Below are positions 32,160 through 48,500 of a stretch of 64,000 bases of DNA, piece by piece. Every line of letters starts with the position of its first letter. Positions within the stretch are counted from its first letter, which is position 1. The notes under the pieces were generated by a model. It saw only the letters and a list, made by a program, of their open reading frames with translations. It had not been told where the DNA came from and did no database searches. Source of the stretch: Eledone cirrhosa (taxonomy: Eukaryota). A program made the position numbers and the translations under genes. Location: contig OZ024755.1 of the NCBI GenBank assembly GCA_964016885.1, positions 40,672,001 through 40,736,000 of the forward strand, written 5' to 3'.

Positions 32160-32246
32160 TCTCGCGAGACGGATTCGAACCATCGACCTAAGGATGACAG
32201 TTAACTCCACTACAGTCCTCCGCTCTGCCAACTGAGCTATCGCGAG
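32160..32246 (-). tRNA. tRNA-Tyr: tRNA-Tyr(GTA) with a 14-nt intron (32196-32209)
   Basis: Minus strand reads CTCGCGA TAGCTCAGTTGGCAGAGC G GAGGA CTGTAG [tggagttaactgtc] A TCCTT AGGTC GATGG TTCGAAT CCGTC TCGCGAG A. It has a 7-bp acceptor stem, C1:G72 and A73, A and B boxes, and the intron at the canonical 37/38 position. Confidence 0.96.
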
Positions 32247-32840: not shown

Positions 32841-33014
32841 AAAATGTTTAACCACGACGGCAGAGCTCAAGCCGTTTCGACGGCTATTTCTGGAGTCCAG
32901 AAATAGCCGTCGAATCGGGGTTAAACATTTTCCCATTACCCACTCTACTACCCCAAGTATTGAGTACTCTGGTGCGTTATGGTCCACCTGGTTCCTTACC
33001 ACACTTCCTTCGTT
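32838..33014 (+). mobile_element. Family B element with a fold-back 5' end and half-hammerhead
   Basis: Hairpin centred at 32895. Minus-strand GAAACGGC..GCCGTC at 32856-32878. Homologous to 33135-33249 and 39282-39482. Flanked by (TA)n. Confidence 0.75.
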
Positions 33015-33037
33015 ATATATATATTTATATATATATA

Positions 33038-33134
<97 letters not shown>

Positions 33135-33135
<1 letters not shown>

Positions 33136-33249
33136 ACGAAGGAAATGTGGTAAGGAACCAGGTGGACCATAACGCACCAAAGTACTCAATACTTGGGGTA
33201 GTAGAGTGGGTAATGGGAACCGGTAAGACCCCGGTAAGACCGGTTCCTA
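33135..33249 (-). mobile_element. Family B 3' fragment, tail-to-tail with the previous copy across (TA)n
   Basis: 33135-33218 is the reverse complement of about 32931-33014. Confidence 0.8.
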
Positions 33250-34087: not shown

Positions 34088-34229
34088 AGTTTATGTTGGT
34101 TGTATACCAACACCTCAGTATGCAGGCTGGAGCACTCGACGAGGTGCGCAGGTTGGTTTGGTTACTCCGGAGTAGTGTAAAATAAAGTTAAATAAAAAGT
34201 CAAATGATTAAAATTTAGCTTCGTTTATT

Positions 34230-34284
34230 ACTGCTATATATATTTCAGTGACAGCCATCTTTGGCTGTGACCTCTTCAGGCAGT
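34230..34284 (-). ncRNA. Minimal type I hammerhead ribozyme (family E)
   Basis: Reverse complement of 34487-34541. Confidence 0.85.
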
Positions 34285-34486
34285 TTGAATTAGTATGGTA
34301 TAGACAAGTACATATGTTGTTTAGGTGTATAATATTGTCAATACTCTGATATGCCCAGGAACTGGAGTCATATGACTCCAGTTCCTCAGTGAAATAACAA
34401 CCCAACAAGGAACTGGGCATATCAGAGTATTGACAATATTATACACCTAAACAACATATGTACTTGTCTAAACCATACTAATTCAA

Positions 34487-34541
34487 ACTGCCTGAAGAGG
34501 TCACAGCCAAAGATGGCTGTCACTGAAATATATATAGCAGT
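34487..34541 (+). ncRNA. Minimal type I hammerhead ribozyme (family E)
   Basis: ACTGC CTGAAGA GGTCACAGCCA aaga TGGCTGTCACT GAAA TATATA TA| GCAGT. Predicted cleavage after 34536. Confidence 0.85.
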
Positions 34542-34585
34542 AATAAACGAAGCTAAATTTTAATCATTTGACTTTTATTTAACTT

Positions 34586-34653
<68 letters not shown>

Positions 34654-36489: not shown

Positions 36490-36703
36490 GTCTAAGTGAT
36501 AAACTAGGATTGGTATTCCAAATATGATTTGGTTTACAGTAATCTTTCTGCCTTTGTTAATATTATAGCTTTAAAGAATTAGCTTTTAATGAACTCCCTT
36601 TTCTTTAAATCCTTCACCCAATGACCTCCACCCATCCCAATCCCCCCCTCTCCTACCACCAGAAAAGAAAAGATATAAATACCACTACTTACTTGGACAG
36701 CCA

Positions 36704-36752
36704 GCTCCCTGATGATTTCTCACTAATGAAACAGTTCTAGTCCTGTAGAAGC
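36704..36752 (+). ncRNA. Type I hammerhead ribozyme (family A; element extends to 36842)
   Basis: GCTCC CTGATGA TTTCTCACTAAT GAAA CAG ttctagtc CTG TA| GAAGC. Core intact, stem II eroded. Confidence 0.65.
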
Positions 36753-36860
36753 CCTTCTATATTAAAACTTTTATACTCTGTTATGTATTGAGTACCTTAC
36801 TTACTGTGGTTACCTCCGATTCAACCCGGAATAACTTATCTTATATATATATATATATAT

Positions 36861-38085
<1,225 letters not shown>

Positions 38086-38284
38086 TATATATATATATAT
38101 AATAGGATATGTGTTCCTACACGCACAAGGCGCTAAGGGACACATGTATTGTCCAACCATATGCCAATGTGGTTCAATGGCAGGTTAATAAATTAACGAG
38201 CCAGAACATATATAATCAAGGTTTAGCAAATAAGATAAAGTTTCAAAATAAATTTTAAAAAATTAACTTTACTTACTATGGTTA

Positions 38285-38366
38285 CCTTTACCGAGTCGAT
38301 TTCTATTCTCAAAAATAAACGGAGTCCATACGGCCTTCGTTGCAAAGAAAGAATCTCGTCAGAAGG
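38285..38366 (-). ncRNA. Type I hammerhead ribozyme (family I), with two stem substitutions
   Basis: CCTT CTGACGA GATTCT...AGAATA GAAA TCGACTCGG TA| AAGG. Confidence 0.8.
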
Positions 38367-39012
38367 ATCTTTTCATTCGGAGAATATAAAATTCTCGAAT
38401 TCAAATTACGAACTGGCGCTATTCAAAATTGTTCCCGAGATGAGAGTAAATGAAATGGAATCAATTTTTTCAAGGGCCGAATGTAAAGATAGAGGCAGAG
38501 GCAGAGAGGTCAGATGGCTACTGCTATAACTAGCAGCAGTCAGAACGACCAAATTTTTCTCAACATAGAGGAGAATAGTTATAATAGGATATATGTTCCT
38601 ACACGCACAAGGTAACCATAGTAAGTAAAGTTAATTTTTTAAAATTTATTTTGAAACTTTATCTTATTTGCTAAACCTTGATTATATATGTTCTGGCTCG
38701 TTAATTTATTAACCTGCCATTGAACCACATTGGCATATGGTTGGACAATACATGTGTCCCTTAGCGCCTTGTGCGTGTAGGAACACATATCCTATTATTA
38801 CTATTCTCCTCTATGTTGAGAAAAATTTGGTCGTTCTGACTGCTGCTAGTTATAGCAGTAGCCGAATGACCTCCCTGCCTCCGCCTCTATCTTTACATTC
38901 GGCCCTTGAAAAAATTGATTCCACTTCATTTACTCTCATCTCGGGAACAATTTTGAATAGCGCCAGTTCGTAATTTGAATTCGAGAATTTTATATTCTCC
39001 AAATGAAAAGAT

Positions 39013-39092
39013 CCTTCTGACGAGATTCTTTCTTTGCAACGAAGGCCGTATGGCCCGTTTATTTTTGAGAATCGAAACCGACTCGGTAAAGG
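39013..39092 (+). ncRNA. Type I hammerhead ribozyme (family I), intact
   Basis: CCTT CTGACGA GATTCTT..AACG..GGCC gtat GGCC CGTT..GAGAATC GAAA CCG act CGG TA| AAGG. GUA cleavage predicted after 39088. Confidence 0.93.
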
Positions 39093-39162
39093 TAACCATA
39101 GTAAGTACAGTTAATTTTTTAAAATTTATTTTGAAACTTTATCTTATTTGCTAAACCTTGAT

Positions 39163-39193
<31 letters not shown>

Positions 39194-39218
39194 CTATATA
39201 TATATATGTATATCTATA

Positions 39219-39584
<366 letters not shown>

Positions 39585-41551: not shown

Positions 41552-42249
41552 GATTAGTCCTAGTTTAGATTACTAAAATAGCTGTGGATGTTGAGGAGGG
41601 ATTAGTCCTAGTTTAGATTACTAAAATAGCTGTGGATGTTGAGGAGGGATTAGTCCTAGTTTAGATTACTAAAATAGCTGTGGATGTTGAGGAGGGATTA
41701 GTCCTAGTTTAGATTACTAAAATAGCTGTGGATGTTGAGGAGGGATTAGTCCTAGTTTAGATTACTAAAATAGCTGTGGATGTTGAGGAGGGATTAGTCC
41801 TAGTTTAGATTACTAAAATAGCTGTGGATGTTGAGGAGGGATTAGTCCTAGTTTAGATTACTAAAATAGCTGTGGATGTTGAGGAGGGATTAGTCCTAGT
41901 TTAGATTACTAAAATAGCTGTGGATGTTGAGGAGGGATTAGTCCTAGTTTAGATTACTAAAATAGCTGTGGATGTTGAGGAGGGATTAGTCCTAGTTTAG
42001 ATTACTAAAATAGCTGTGGATGTTGAGGAGGGATTAGTCCTAGTTTAGATTACTAAAATAGCTGTGGATGTTGAGGAGGGATTAGTCCTAGTTTAGATTA
42101 CTAAAATAGCTGTGGATGTTGAGGAGGGATTAGTCCTAGTTTAGATTACTAAAATAGCTGTGGGTGTTGAGGAGGGATTAGTCCTAGTTTAGATTACTAA
42201 AATAGCTGTGGGTGTTGAGGAGGGATTAGTCCTAGTTTAGACTACTAAA
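41552..42249. repeat. 48-bp minisatellite, ~14.5 near-identical copies
   Basis: Unit GATTAGTCCTAGTTTAGATTACTAAAATAGCTGTGGATGTTGAGGAGG. Confidence 0.97.
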
Positions 42250-42509
42250 GTATCTTCACCTATGGAGACATTGACACACAGACAGGCAACGAACAATATT
42301 AGAATTCCATTTCATTTTAACAAAGCGGAATGTGTAATGATGATCTATTTTAGTATAATAACAGAAATAGTTTCTGTTGACAATGACGACTGGCTAGGTT
42401 GATCTCACGTTGCAATGTTGTCAGACAGGTTAACATTTCTGATGCCAGCGCACGTATATAACCCAGTGTTAATGAGAGAAAATACTACATGTATTACTAC
42501 TAGTTAAAA

Positions 42510-45500
42510 TTAACCCTTTCATTACCATATTTCTAATGAAAGACACTGTCTATGTCATTAACCCTTCCATTACCATATTTCTAATGAAAGACAATGTCTA
42601 TGTCTTTAACACTTTCATTACCATATTTCTAATGAAAGACACTGTCTATGTCTTTAACACTTTCATTACCATATTTCTAATGAAAGACACTGTCTATGTC
42701 TTTAAACCTTTCATTACCATATTTCTAATGAAAGACACTGTCTATGTCTTTAACACTTTCATTACCATATTTCTAATGAAAGACACTGTCTATGTCTTTA
42801 ACCCTTTCATTACCATATTTCTAATGAAAGACACTGTCTATGTCATTAACCCTTCCATTACCATATTTCTAATGAAAGACACTGTCTATGTCTTTAACAC
42901 TTTCATTACCATATTTCTAATGAAAGACACTGTCTATGTCTTTAACACTTTCATTACCATATTTCTAATGAAAGACACTGTCTATGTCTTTAACACTTTC
43001 ATTACCATATTTCTAATGAAAGACACCGTCTATGACATTAACCCTTTCATTACCATATTTCTAATGATAGACACTGTCTATGTCATTAACCCTTCCATTA
43101 CCATATTTCTAATGATAAACACTGTCTATGTCATTAACCCTTCCATTACTAGATTTCTAATGAAAGACACTGTATATGTCATTAACCCTTCCATTACCAT
43201 ATTTCTAATAAAAGACACCGTCGATGTCATTAACCCTTTCATTACCATATTTCTAATGAAAGACACTGTCTATGTCATTAAACCTTCCATTACCATATTT
43301 CTAATAAAAGACACCGTCTATGTCTTTAAACCTTTCATTACCATATTTCTAATGAAAGACACTGTCTATGTCATTAACCCTTTCATTACCATATTTCTAA
43401 TGAAAGACACTGTCTATGTCTTTAACACTTTCATTACCATATTTCTAATGACAGACACCGTCTATGTCATTAACACTTTCATTACCATATTTCTAATGAA
43501 AGACACCGTCTATGTCATTAACCCTTTCATTACCATATTTCTAATGAAAGACACCGTCTATGTCTTTAACACTTTCATTACCATATTTCTAATGAAAGAA
43601 ACCGTCTATGTCTTTAACACTTTCATTACCATATTTCTAATGAAAGACACCGTCTATGTCTTTAACACTTTCATTACCATATTTCTAATGAAAGACACTG
43701 TCTATGTCATTAACCCTTCCATTACCATATTTCTAATGAAAGACACTGTCTATGTCATTAACAATTTCATTACCATATTTCTAATGAAAGACACCGTCTA
43801 TGTCTTTAACACTTTCATTACCATATTTCTAATGAAAGACACCGTCTATGTCATTAACCCTTCCATTACCATATTTCTAATGAAAGACACTGTCTATGTC
43901 ATTAACAATTTCATTACCATATTTCTAATGAAAGACACCGTCTATGTCTTTAACACTTTCATTACCATATTTCTAATGAAAGACACTGTCTATGTCATTA
44001 ACCCTTCCATTACCATATTTCTAATGAAAGACACTGTCTATGTCATTAACAATTTCATTACCATATTTCTAATAAAAGACACCGTCTATGTCTTTAACAC
44101 TTTCATTACCATATTTCTAATGAAAGACACTGTCTATGTCATTAACCCTTCCATTACCAGATTTCTAATGAAAGACACTGTCTATGTCATTAACCCTTCC
44201 ATTACCAGATTTCTAATGAAAGACACTGTCTATGTTATTAACCCTTCCATTACCAGATTTCTAATGAAAGACACTGTCTATGTCATTAACCCTTCCATTA
44301 CCAGATTTCTAATGAATGACACTGTATATGTCATTAACCCTTCCATTACCATATTTCTAATGAAAGACACTGTCTATGTCATTAAACCTTCCATTACCAT
44401 ATTTCTAATAAAAGACACCGTCTATGTCTTTAACCCTTCCATTGCCATATTTCTAATAAAAGACACTGTCTATGTCTTTTATCCTTTCATTACCATATTT
44501 CTAATGAAAGACACCGTCTATGTCATTAACCCTTCCATTACCATATTTCTAATGAAAGACACCGTCTATGTCTTTAACCCTTCCATTACCATATCTCTAA
44601 TGAAAGACACTGTCTATGTCATTAACCCTTTCATTATCATATTTCTAATAAAAGACACTGTCAATGTCATTAACCCTTTCATTACCATATTTCTAATGAG
44701 AGACACTGTCTATGTCATTAACCCTTCCATTACCATATTTCTAATGAAAGACACTGTCTATGTCATTAAACCTTCCATTACCATATTTCTAATAAAAGAC
44801 ACCGTCTATGTCTTTAATCCTTTCATTACCATATTTCTAATGAAAGACACTGTCTATGTCATTAACCCTTTCATTACCATATTTTTAATGAAAGACACTG
44901 TCTATGTCTTTAACACTTTCATTACCATATTTCTAATGAAAGACACTGTATATGTCATTAACCCTTCCATTACCATATTTCTAATCAAAGACACTGTCTA
45001 TGTCATTAACCCTTCCATTACCAGATTTCTAATGAAAGACACTGTATATGTCATTAACCCTTCCATTACCATATTTCTAATGAAAGACACTGCCTATGTC
45101 ATTAAACCTTTCATTACCATATTTCTAATAAAAGACACCGTCGATGTCATTAACCCTTTCATTACCATATTTCTAATGAAAGACACTGTCTATGTCATTA
45201 AACCTTCCATTACCATATTTCTAATAAAAGACACCGTCTATGTCTTTAACCCTTCCATTGCCATATTTCTAATAAAAGACACTGTCTATGTCATTAAACC
45301 TTTCATTACCATATTTCTAATGAAAGACACTGTCTATGTCTTTAATCCTTTCATTACCATATTTCTAATGAAAGACACTGTCTATGTCATTAACCCTTCC
45401 ATTACCAGATTTCTAATGAAAGACACTGTATATGTCATTAACCCTTCCATTACCATATTTCTAATGAAAGACACCGTCTATGTCATTAACCCTTCCATTA

Positions 45501-48500
45501 CCATATTTCTAATGAAAGACACTGTCTATGTTATTAACCCTTCCATTACCATATTTCTAATGAAAGACACTGTCTATGTCATTAACCCTTCCATTTACAG
45601 ATTTCTAATGAAAGACACTGTATATGTCATTAACCCTTCCATTGCCATATTTCTAATGAAAGACACTGTCTATGTCATTAACCCTTTCATTACCATGTTT
45701 CTAATAAAAGACACTGTCTATGTCTTTAACCCTTCCATTACCATATTTCTAATGAAAGACACTGTCTATGTCATTAAACCTTCCATTACCATATTTCTAA
45801 TAAAAGACACCGTCTATGTCTTTAACCCTTCCATTGCCATATTTCTAATAAAAGACACTGTCTATGTCTTTTATCCTTTCATTACCATATTTCTAATGAA
45901 AGACACCGTCTATGTCATTAACCCTTCCATTACCATATTTCTAATGAAAGACACCGTCTATGTCTTTAACCCTTCCATTACCATATTTCTAATGAAAGAC
46001 ACTGTCTATGTCATTAACCCTTCCATTACCATATTTCTAATGAAAGACACGGTCTATGTCATTAACCCTTCCATTACCAGATTTCTAATGAAAGACACTG
46101 TATATGTCATTAACCCTTCCATTACCATATTTCTAATGAAAGACACTGTCTATGTCATTAACCCTTCCATTACCATATTTCTAATGAAAGACACTGTCTA
46201 TGTCTTTAACACTTTCATTACCATATTTCTAATGAAAGACACTGTCTATGTCATTAACCCTTTCATTACCATATTTCTATTGAAAGACACCGTCTATGTC
46301 TTTAACACTTTCATTACCATATTTCTAATGAAAGACACCGTCTATGTCATTAACCCTTTCATTACCATATTTCTAATGAAAGACACCGTCTATGTCTTTA
46401 ACCCTTCCATTACCATATTTCTAATGAAAGACACTGTCTATGTCATTAACCCTTTCATTATCATATTTCTAATAAAAGACACTGTCAATGTCATTAACCC
46501 TTTCATTACCATATTTCTAATGAAAGACACTGTCTATGTCATTAACCCTTCCATTACCATATTTCTAATGAAAGACACTGTCTATGTCATTAAACCTTCC
46601 ATTACCATATTTCTAATAAAAGACACCGTCTATGTCTTTAATCCTTTCATTACCATATTTCTAATGAAAGACACTGTCTATGTCATTAACCCTTTCATTA
46701 CCATATTTTTAATGAAAGACACTGTCTATGTCTTTAACACTTTCATACCATATTTCTAATGAAAGACACTGTATATGTCATTAACCCTTCCATTACCATA
46801 TTTCTAATCAAAGACACTGTCTATGTCATTAACCCTTCCATTACCAGATTTCTAATGAAAGACACTGTATATGTCATTAACCCTTCCATTACCATATTTC
46901 TAATGAAAGACACTGCCTATGTCATTAACCCTTTCATTACCATATTTCTAATAAAAGACACCGTCGATGTCATTAACCCTTTCATTACCATATTTCTAAT
47001 GAAAGACACTGTCTATGTCATTAAACCTTCCATTACCATATTTCTAATGAAAGACACTGTCTATGTTATTAACCCTTCCATTACCATATTTCTAATGAAA
47101 GACACTGTCTATGTTATTAACCCTTCCATTACCATATTTCTAATGAAAGACACTGTCTATGTCATTAACCCTTCCATTACCAGATTTCTAATGAAAGACA
47201 CTGTATATGTCATTAACCCTTCCATTACCATATTTCTAATGAAAGACACTGTCTATGTCATTAACCCTTCCATTACCTTATTTCTAATGAAAGACACTGT
47301 CTATGTCTTTAACACTTTCATTACCATATTTCTAATGAAAGACACTGTCTATGTCATTAACCCTTTCATTACCATATTTCTATTGAAAGACACCGTCTAT
47401 GTCTTTAACACTTTCATTACCATATTTCTAATAAAAGACACCGTCTATGTCATTAACCCTTTCATTACCATATTTCTAATGAAAGACACTGTCTATGTCA
47501 TTAACCCTTTCATTACCATATTTCTAATAAAAGACACCGTCTATGTCTTTAACCCTTTCATTACCATATTTCTAATAAAAGACACCGTCTATGTCATTAA
47601 CCCTTTCATTACCATATTTCTAATGAAAGACACTGTCTATGTCATTAACCCTTCCATTACCATATTTCTAATGAAAGACACTGTCTATGTCATTAACCCT
47701 TCCATTACCATATTTCTAATGAAAGACACTGTATATGTCATTAACCCTTCCATTACCATATTTCTAATGAAAGACACTGTCTATGTCTTTAACACTTTCA
47801 TTACCATATTTCTAATGAAAGACACTGTCTATGTCTTTAAACCTTTCATTACCATATTTCTAATAAAAGACACCGTCTATGTCTTTAACCCTTCCATTAC
47901 CATATTTCTAATGAAAGACACTGTCTATGTCATTAACCCTTCCATTACCATATTTCTAATGAAAGACACTGTATATGTCATTAACCCTTCCATTACCATA
48001 TTTCTAATGAAAGACACTGTCTATGTCATTAACCCTTCCATTACCAGATTTCTAATGAAAGACACTGAATATGTCATTAACCCTTCCATTACCATATTTC
48101 TAATGAAAGACACTGTCTATGTCATTAACCCTTTCATTACCATATTTCTAATGAAAGACACTGTCTATGTCATTAACCCTTCCATTACCATATTTCTAAT
48201 GAAAGACACTGTCTATGTCATTAACCCTTCCATTACCATAATTCTAATGAAAGACACTATCTATGTCTTTCACCCTTCCATTAACATATTTCTAATGAAA
48301 GACACTGTCTATGTCATTAACCCTTTCATTACCATATTTCTAATGAAAGACACTGTCTATGTCATTAACCCTTCCATTACCATATTTCTAATGAAAGACA
48401 CTGTCTATGTCATTAACCCTTCCATTACCATAATTCTAATGAAAGACACTATCTATGTCTTTCACCCTACCATTACCATATTTCTAATGAAAGACACTGT

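Follow-up and report, generated by a model that had tools for sequence, protein, structure and literature searches.

Inverted, two-armed copies of a hammerhead-bearing 480-nt repeat in Eledone cirrhosa and their 5' ends around the predicted ribozyme cut

Abstract

In the 64,000-nt window of Eledone cirrhosa genomic DNA analysed here, the locus at positions 38085-39282 consists of two arms of a 480-nt repeat that stand 5' to 5' and are flanked on both sides by (TA)n. We read it, with a probability of about 0.68, as a two-armed copy of a protein-free repeat, likely made by a Penelope-type reverse transcriptase (RT), in which one arm begins at the predicted hammerhead cut, likely through an early stop of the ordinary kind that was then joined by microhomology. 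The family to which the locus belongs has two fixed 3' ends and scattered 5' ends, and its templates appear to have been continuous across the predicted cut.

Results

A two-armed copy of a non-coding unit

The features of the locus are collected in Table 1, with unit positions numbered so that u1 is 38609 and u480 is 39088. The plus arm (38609-39169) runs for 480 + 81 nt from the predicted hammerhead cut into the (TA)n tract. An initial annotation had described a 480-nt monomer that starts exactly at its own predicted self-cleavage site and is followed by some 77 nt of a second lap, and both descriptions hold: the monomer is u1-u480, and the 77 nt agree with our 81, the last ~7 nt of the plus arm being common to arm and tract. 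The second lap is identical to the first u1-u81 at 80 of 81 positions, the difference lying at u20 (A/C). The arms overlap by exactly AAGG/CCTT (38609-38612), the 4-nt microhomology that had likewise been pointed out, and because of this overlap the break of the plus arm may lie anywhere in u1-u5. There are no differences between the two arms over u1-190, and 12 aligned positions (4%) differ over u159-480. Each arm holds one complete hammerhead motif, and the longest stop-to-stop frame in the unit is 96 aa. As both ends of the locus lie in (TA)n, a target-site duplication is unreadable.

Table 1. Features of the two-armed locus (window positions; u, unit position)
Feature	Position	Strand	Remarks
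Left (TA)n	38085..38098	.	3' end of minus arm; left half of inferred target
Inverted arm, u159-u480 + u1-u190	38099..38612	-	512 unit positions; ends at the family's fixed u190 site
Minus-arm hammerhead motif	38285..38366	-	Private changes C>A in stem II and C>U in stem III
5'-to-5' arm junction	38609..38612	.	4-nt microhomology AAGG/CCTT
Full 480-nt non-coding unit, u1-u480	38609..39088	+	~37% G+C; folding z -5.5
Conserved hairpin u1-u71	38609..38679	+	AAGGU pairs with ACCUU (u67-71)
Predicted hairpin ~u144-u180, then UAUUAU (u185-190)	38752..38798	+	Second fixed 3' end of the family
Type I hammerhead motif	39013..39092	+	Cut predicted after 39088; stem II with a long extension; stem III short and near-palindromic
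Second lap, u1-u81	39089..39169	+	Stops at the fixed u81 site of the family, a putative priming site
Right (TA)n	39163..39282	.	3' end of plus arm; right half of inferred target

Covariation in a type I hammerhead motif

The fold at 39013-39092 comprises stem I (CCUU/AAGG), CUGACGA, stem II, GAAA, stem III (CCGA/UCGG) and a GUA that ends at 39088, after which the cut would fall by the standard hammerhead rule. Rfam returned no hammerhead match to this stretch, either at the gathering score or among the 149 rows obtained at E<=10. The hammerhead core and three stems are present, and the family contains 181 copies of the motif. Among these, stem II has G-C, U-A or A-U at pair 3, stem I is CCUU/AAGG or CCCU/AGGG, and the variants of stem III include the perfect palindromes CCGAUCGG, CCGCGCGG and CCGUACGG. 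Short palindromic stems III are known from the dimer-acting hammerheads of PLEs (Cervera and de la Pena 2014, PMC4209133).

Across 51 distinct copies, 53 cells have changed on both sides against 11.5 in shuffles, a contrast inflated by the relatedness of the copies, and 93% of the hammerhead cells are paired, compared with 23-60% in slid-partner controls. Covariation is seen in stems I and II and in the inner hairpin; the change in stem I fixes the register of the predicted cut, and covariation of this strength implies selection for the fold. The hammerhead placed at 39013-39092 in the initial annotation thus stands as a type I motif, and the repeat with its ribozyme motif is far beyond chance.

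A dispersed family with two fixed 3' ends

The 21-mer u59-79 has 1,888 exact matches in the 3.0-Gb genome (control, 0). Monomers across the family are 77 to 100% identical, and the 78 in our library are 444-498 nt long. Copies are mostly dispersed arms of ~0.1-2 laps, often inverted, and long arrays are not the rule. The median arm length is 351 nt (sample of 158 5' ends), at least two predicted cut sites are crossed by 52 of 290 arms, and subfamilies from 77 to 100% identity all include arms of more than one unit. The distribution of arm lengths departs from a memoryless one, its hazard rising from 0.16 to 0.68% per nt (n=55). The longest arm, of ~4.4 laps (L150 + L290; G000:C2, ~152.107-152.109 Mb), contains four full laps only 0-3 substitutions apart, and is our best candidate source of monomer RNA. 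It was also considered as a long master array (C2:152.1 Mb) and rejected as such, since it stops after 4.4 laps; no long master array was found among the fetched loci.

Across copies, the 3' ends are fixed and the 5' ends variable. With identical copies merged, 223 of 241 arm records have their 3' end at u75-85 or u178-198, and the 3' flanks are (TA)n, with some exceptions. An inverted 5'-truncated partner arm adjoins the 5' end at 92 loci, and when the second 3'-end bin is widened to u165-198, 81 of these pair u81 with u190, one has u81 in both arms, none has u190 in both, and 10 include an odd end. At the 92 inverted junctions the arms are joined by 1-4 nt of microhomology (46, seven of them with 4 nt), flush (13) or with an insert (33). 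Microhomology of 4 nt is therefore found in 7 of the 59 junctions without insert, against 1.4% in random joins, these counts being drawn from pooled, partly selected loci. The u1/u159 junction described above occurs at two genomic loci, the second (G000:C1:226329603) having arms of only 81 and 32 nt and belonging to a different variant; its repetition fits cleavage with microhomology and fits microhomology alone.

Scattered 5' ends and a modest excess around the predicted cut

The initial annotation took the start of the plus arm as the DNA footprint of a ribozyme-cleaved RNA 5' end, and proposed mapping the 5' junctions of all copies and looking for enrichment at the cleavage site. Two anchors with 1,888 and 170 matches in total were sampled at the first 100 matches listed for each, and 5' ends at these loci were called against the library of 78 monomers. 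Thirty loci picked by best full-unit match form a biased set and were left out as a sample, seven of them being present in the sample of the 170-match anchor. The 158 sampled 5' ends are spread over all 24 20-nt bins at a mean of 0.35% per nt, which is largely the scatter that the annotation itself had named as speaking against its reading, and the predicted cut window u477-u4 was read through in 163 of 174 passes (94%). In this stretch, which was chosen after seeing the data and is matched by 1.7% of all 8-nt windows, we count 12 ends where 4.5 would be expected (nominal p 0.002); 5 ends lie at u1-u4 (2.1 expected) and 7 at u477-u480 (2.3 expected). Compatibility with u1 was found in 3 of 172 passes (~2%; 1.0 expected), a value reached by 13% of positions, and u21-40 shows a similar excess (16 ends vs 7.4 expected). 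Inverted arms carry the excess in the cut window (8 of 68 ends vs 1.9 expected), and TA-joined arms are without it (2 of 59 vs 1.7).

A genome-wide map at single-base resolution, covering all classes, reduced 80 rows to 38 true ends once 19 rows of an unrelated family (5 checked at the locus, the rest by their letters), 19 mutated read-throughs (17 checked) and 4 rows of one local mini-repeat had been dropped. By base these fall at u3 (3), u2 (3), u1 (7), u480 (5), u479 (7), u478 (6) and u477 (7), compared with an expectation of ~2.4 per base and ~17 in total, at a detection of ~56% that is slightly higher at u477. There is no elevation of u1 over its upstream neighbours (p=0.46), and 25 of the 38 ends lie 1-4 nt upstream of the cut. 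Five of these could be u1 by way of microhomology and 20 are strictly upstream, including 5 that are TA-joined at u479, where an irregular tract is possible. As a cleaved RNA lacks the bases upstream of the cut, it offers no template for ends located there. Positions u2-u3 seem lower (6 ends vs 32 at u1-u477, p=0.053); the excess may thus begin at u1, and cleavage or a ligation scar could cause such an onset.

Genome-wide, TA-joined ends within 15 nt of the u3 anchor were found at 45 distinct loci (91 rows), and the same search at the control anchors u401, u345 and u60 gave 19, 17 and 42 loci (hand-counted). The corresponding rates are 3.0, 2.3, 2.1 and 2.1%, so that 45 ends near the cut stand against 32 expected, with denominators that are estimates, at-risk numbers having been scaled from the sample. 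Ten of these loci have an end compatible with u1 and 11 have theirs at u475-474, and single TA-like sites in the controls gather ~16/42, 7/19 and 5-6/17 of the TA-joined ends, as many as the cut. A further 5'-end search (control, 7 rows at a different detection rate) was left out of the counts, as its matches came mostly from an unrelated family with 17-21 nt in common.

These maps place the coincidence of 5' ends with the predicted cut only modestly beyond chance, and the 5' junctions of the family are not concentrated at the cleavage site in the manner of R2. Of the earlier proposal, the enrichment survives as a two- to threefold excess within 4 nt of the cut with no peak at u1, and the copying of a hammerhead-bearing repeat by reverse transcription survives as well; the footprint of a cleaved 5' end is not supported, given the read-through and the 25 of 38 ends in bases that a cleaved RNA would lack. 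Judged from sequence, the start at the predicted cut weakly suggests self-cleavage of the RNA in the animal.

Templates probably continuous across the cut

Variants are linked as strongly across the cut as within a lap, with a mean |r| of 0.50 vs 0.48 over 65 pairs and of 0.51 vs 0.48 over 883 pairs. Linkage is thus undiminished at the point where template jumping between cleaved monomers would have had to occur, on which ground such jumping was rejected, and the templates were likely continuous, as a circle or an uncut multimer. Four near-identical laps in one arm are as rolling on a circle would give. Isolated differences between laps are common alleles in 22 of 182 cases vs 10.3 expected, a count freed of the poly-T alignment effect at u32-33; together with the differing arms, this indicates that some templates were mixed multimers or that arms were converted later. 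Mosaic laps and the non-identical arms of the present locus do not fit one clean circle. On balance, we lean slightly towards a ligated circle rather than an uncut multimer as the template.

A predicted hairpin that competes with stem I

In predicted folds of the hammerhead with 81 downstream bases, u1-u5 pairs with u67-71 at a probability of 0.84-0.96, about 0.9 in the copy described here, and stem I forms at 0.01, and the u1-u71 hairpin is predicted to beat stem I in 61 of 78 monomers. Most of its pairs are kept at >=95% across 219 distinct copies, and changes within it are frequently one-sided and pair-keeping; double changes are few, which is a point against the explanation that we favour. 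If formed as predicted, this fold would prevent the copied molecule from being cleaved. A predicted hairpin precedes each of the fixed 3' ends, which are situated ~7-10 nt 3' of it, and completion of the u1-u71 hairpin in the cDNA, or entry into stem III, could be the cause of the excess stops.

Candidate mobilisers and neighbouring elements

Flanks of the copies hold open reading frame (ORF) fragments that match RT and GIY-YIG. At one locus (L109, 1299-2999) the 3' end of an arm (u463) is fused to an RT/endonuclease-like ORF that lies on the same strand and is truncated at its 5' end, a single event that may represent a template switch. For a relative of this ORF, scores of 0.94-0.97 were obtained to clusters with HTH_animal, GIY-YIG and RVT_1; the 3' region of this ORF group (L310) has its own minimal hammerhead-like motif, and relatives form inverted ORF pairs (L311). 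The group is a candidate mobiliser. In the one PLE-like group compared (L310/L311) there is no match of >=60 nt to the unit, and no autonomous element sharing the unit sequence was found in the fetched flanks. No autonomous partner emerged from the PLE-like flank ORFs, which carry other hammerheads; 4 of 7 fragments are without a Pfam hit.

The element cluster in the window lies between a satellite of 11-bp units (31 kb, 5-31106) and 48-bp satellites (41552-42249 and 42509-64000), the last of which keeps a 1,427-codon open frame (42476-46759) that is probably a by-product of its period. A second hammerhead-like motif at 37136-37207 on the minus strand (Rfam HH9, 37.7 bits, below the gathering score of 52) sits in another inverted, TA-flanked element (36861-37545), and at least four further fold-back elements stand at (TA)n within 7 kb (32930-33220, 34180-34590, 37680-37975 and 39283-39480), the family at 39283-39400 being extremely abundant in three contig sets from one sample. 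Random flanks contain two additional families of hammerheads with a long extension of stem II (L023:2171, L119:2505 and L200:1740; L032:328, L109:980 and L212:813). A tRNA gene match at 32160-32246 on the minus strand is interrupted in its anticodon arm by 17 inserted nt that probably represent an intron.

An unrelated short, two-armed, (TA)n-inserting family is present at window positions 36700-36843 and at further loci (L163-L192, L275, L276, L284, L287 and L289), and makes up ~80 of the first 100 matches listed in a search near the cut. It carries a 22-nt stretch (20/22 identical) resembling u2-u23, directly 3' of the predicted cut, in antisense relative to its fixed end; shared ancestry and a trans-pairing RNA are candidate causes of this likeness. 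Apparent chimeras of our unit with this family were rejected, as all five loci checked are plain members of it.

Discussion

From the layout, the fixed 3' ends and their u81/u190 pairing, the scattered 5' ends, the covariation and the linkage across the cut, we infer an enzyme, its priming, the form of its template, ribozyme cleavage and a switch that would act together as follows. A borrowed Penelope-type enzyme would cut both strands within (TA)n, upon which one DNA end would prime at the UA-rich patch near u81 and the other near u190, both proposed sites lying just 3' of a hairpin. Copying from both ends would run along a template without a break at the cut and stop after a few hundred bases, and the two cDNA ends would be joined through microhomology of 0-4 nt or with a short filler. 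The two- to threefold excess of stops from u1 to ~u474 would most likely reflect RNA or cDNA structure, such as the hairpin completion or stem III entry proposed above. The ribozyme likely acts earlier, processing multimeric transcripts to monomers, possibly as a double hammerhead, and would then be turned off by the u1-u71 hairpin in the template molecule. The rising hazard with arm length, the mosaic laps and differing arms, and the failure to find an autonomous element with the unit sequence in the fetched flanks are points against this explanation; the excess among inverted arms and the possible onset at u1 count against an ordinary stop, the former because it is strongest in the very class to which this locus belongs.

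A region rich in palindromes between (TA)n tracts might bring to mind an origin at the DNA level, through a MITE-like palindrome that was duplicated by fold-back or during repair, or else an artefact of the assembly, in either case with no RNA step. This is largely refuted, and we consider it very improbable, as the arms start and end at different unit positions and are 4% divergent over u159-480, the 3' ends are fixed and the 5' ends variable, laps cross a circularly permuted junction, the conserved pairings are those of an RNA catalyst and the layout recurs at 92 loci. Improbable, too, is a template cut at the upstream hammerhead and intact at the downstream one, from whose 5'-OH the RT ran off at u1 before the cDNA was joined via AAGG: most passes read through the cut, ends at u477-u480 equal u1 per base, 20 of 38 lie strictly upstream, the break at this locus could be anywhere in u1-u5, u21-40 has a similar excess and stem I is predicted to be outcompeted by the hairpin. 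These observations outweigh, in our judgement, the exact start at u1, the presence of the u1/u159 junction at a second locus, the 7 ends at u1 against ~2.4 expected, the fourfold excess among inverted arms, the existence of source multimers in the arms that cross at least two cut sites and the precedent that R2 provides in the accessible part of its description (PMC3774820).

The template might instead always have been an uncut linear transcript of a tandem copy, with no circle and with a ribozyme that acts rarely or with protein help. Mosaic laps, the non-identical arms at this locus and the rise of the hazard with arm length are what it would predict, and the available portions of two reports point the same way, unprocessed RNA being the main substrate in an anole PLE (PMC11167929) and cleavage being absent from 8 of 9 Xenopus dimers (10.64898/2026.07.22.740005). 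Arms should, however, then shrink over the generations, whereas subfamilies at all levels of identity keep arms of more than one unit, the longest array among the fetched loci has 4.4 near-identical laps, and strong covariation implies selection for the fold, so that we hold this possibility to be somewhat unlikely. Doubtful, and more speculative, is a scheme in which the ribozyme acts in vivo, an RT travelling on the 480-nt circle pauses at the old cut-and-ligation point and thereby triples the stops over u1-u474, the u1-u71 off-switch both protects the circle and presents a priming site, and a Penelope enzyme acting as a dimer uses two fixed sites of a single RNA to prime the two DNA ends. 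If true, pausing at the scar would amount to genomic evidence for the circle-to-DNA step of retrozymes and would provide a testable design rule.

Comparison with known systems

By its sequence features, the element is a new member of the animal non-LTR retrozymes, which have already been proposed as non-autonomous PLE derivatives. In the accessible parts of the accounts of this group (PMC7229834; 10.64898/2026.07.22.740005), its metazoan members have neither PBS nor PPT and a larger target-site duplication when one is present, self-cleave as monomer or dimer and are expressed as monomer RNA, both linear and circular. Like our family, they are described there as non-coding, low-G+C repeats that carry a single type I hammerhead in each unit, range from monomers to multimers, have matches in the thousands and are proposed to depend on PLE machinery. 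A unit of 480 nt exceeds the 150-450 bp given in the available text of Cervera and de la Pena 2020 (PMC7229834) and falls within the 51-972 bp given in that of Li, Clavereau and Pollet 2026 (10.64898/2026.07.22.740005). Unlike these retrozymes, the copies described here are dispersed and often inverted arms rather than long arrays, and they have a stem II extension of ~40 nt; our unit is known from DNA sequence, and the group compared holds no pLTR homologue.

The likeness to PLEs extends to the insertions themselves. Partial tandems, inverted 5'-truncated copies, tails and (TA)n targets are described for PLEs in the available parts of Craig et al. 2021 (PMC8557442). In the anole PLE, as far as the accessible text of Frangieh et al. 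2024 (PMC11167929) reports, both strands are extended from two internal starts ~85-92 nt 3' of the hammerhead cut (the cut being at +26 and the starts 111-118 nt within the ORF), insertion persists in hammerhead mutants and none of the reads terminates at the cut. With EN+ PLEs, going by the same two texts and PMC4209133 in their available parts, our family has in common 5' truncation, fixed 3' ends with an inverted 5'-truncated partner, two internal starts downstream of the cut, (TA)n targets, a short palindromic stem III and opposite-strand hammerhead pairs 100-700 bp apart. Unlike EN+ PLEs, the unit has no ORF, the two 3' ends are ~109 nt apart compared with the 30-40 given for PLEs in the published text available to us, and the strict pairing of one 3' end of each kind, counted here, differs from PLE accounts. 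R2 with its HDV-like ribozyme is the source of the notion that the 5' junction of an inserted copy is set by a ribozyme cut (PMC3774820); unlike R2, only ~2% of passes here stop at cut-compatible positions, and the hammerhead lies inside the repeated unit.

Listings of the openly accessible literature that we searched showed no map of retrozyme 5' junctions against the cut. The family bears on the question of how animal retrozymes re-enter DNA and of whether their hammerheads act in that step. The single locus is in itself ordinary; the family gives a negative answer to the simplest idea, namely that cleaved 5' ends define the insertions. It also offers three handles on the question, in the form of two fixed priming sites, putatively one per DNA end, a template that appears continuous across the cut and a hairpin predicted to rival the ribozyme, and all three are testable in the published in vitro PLE assay.
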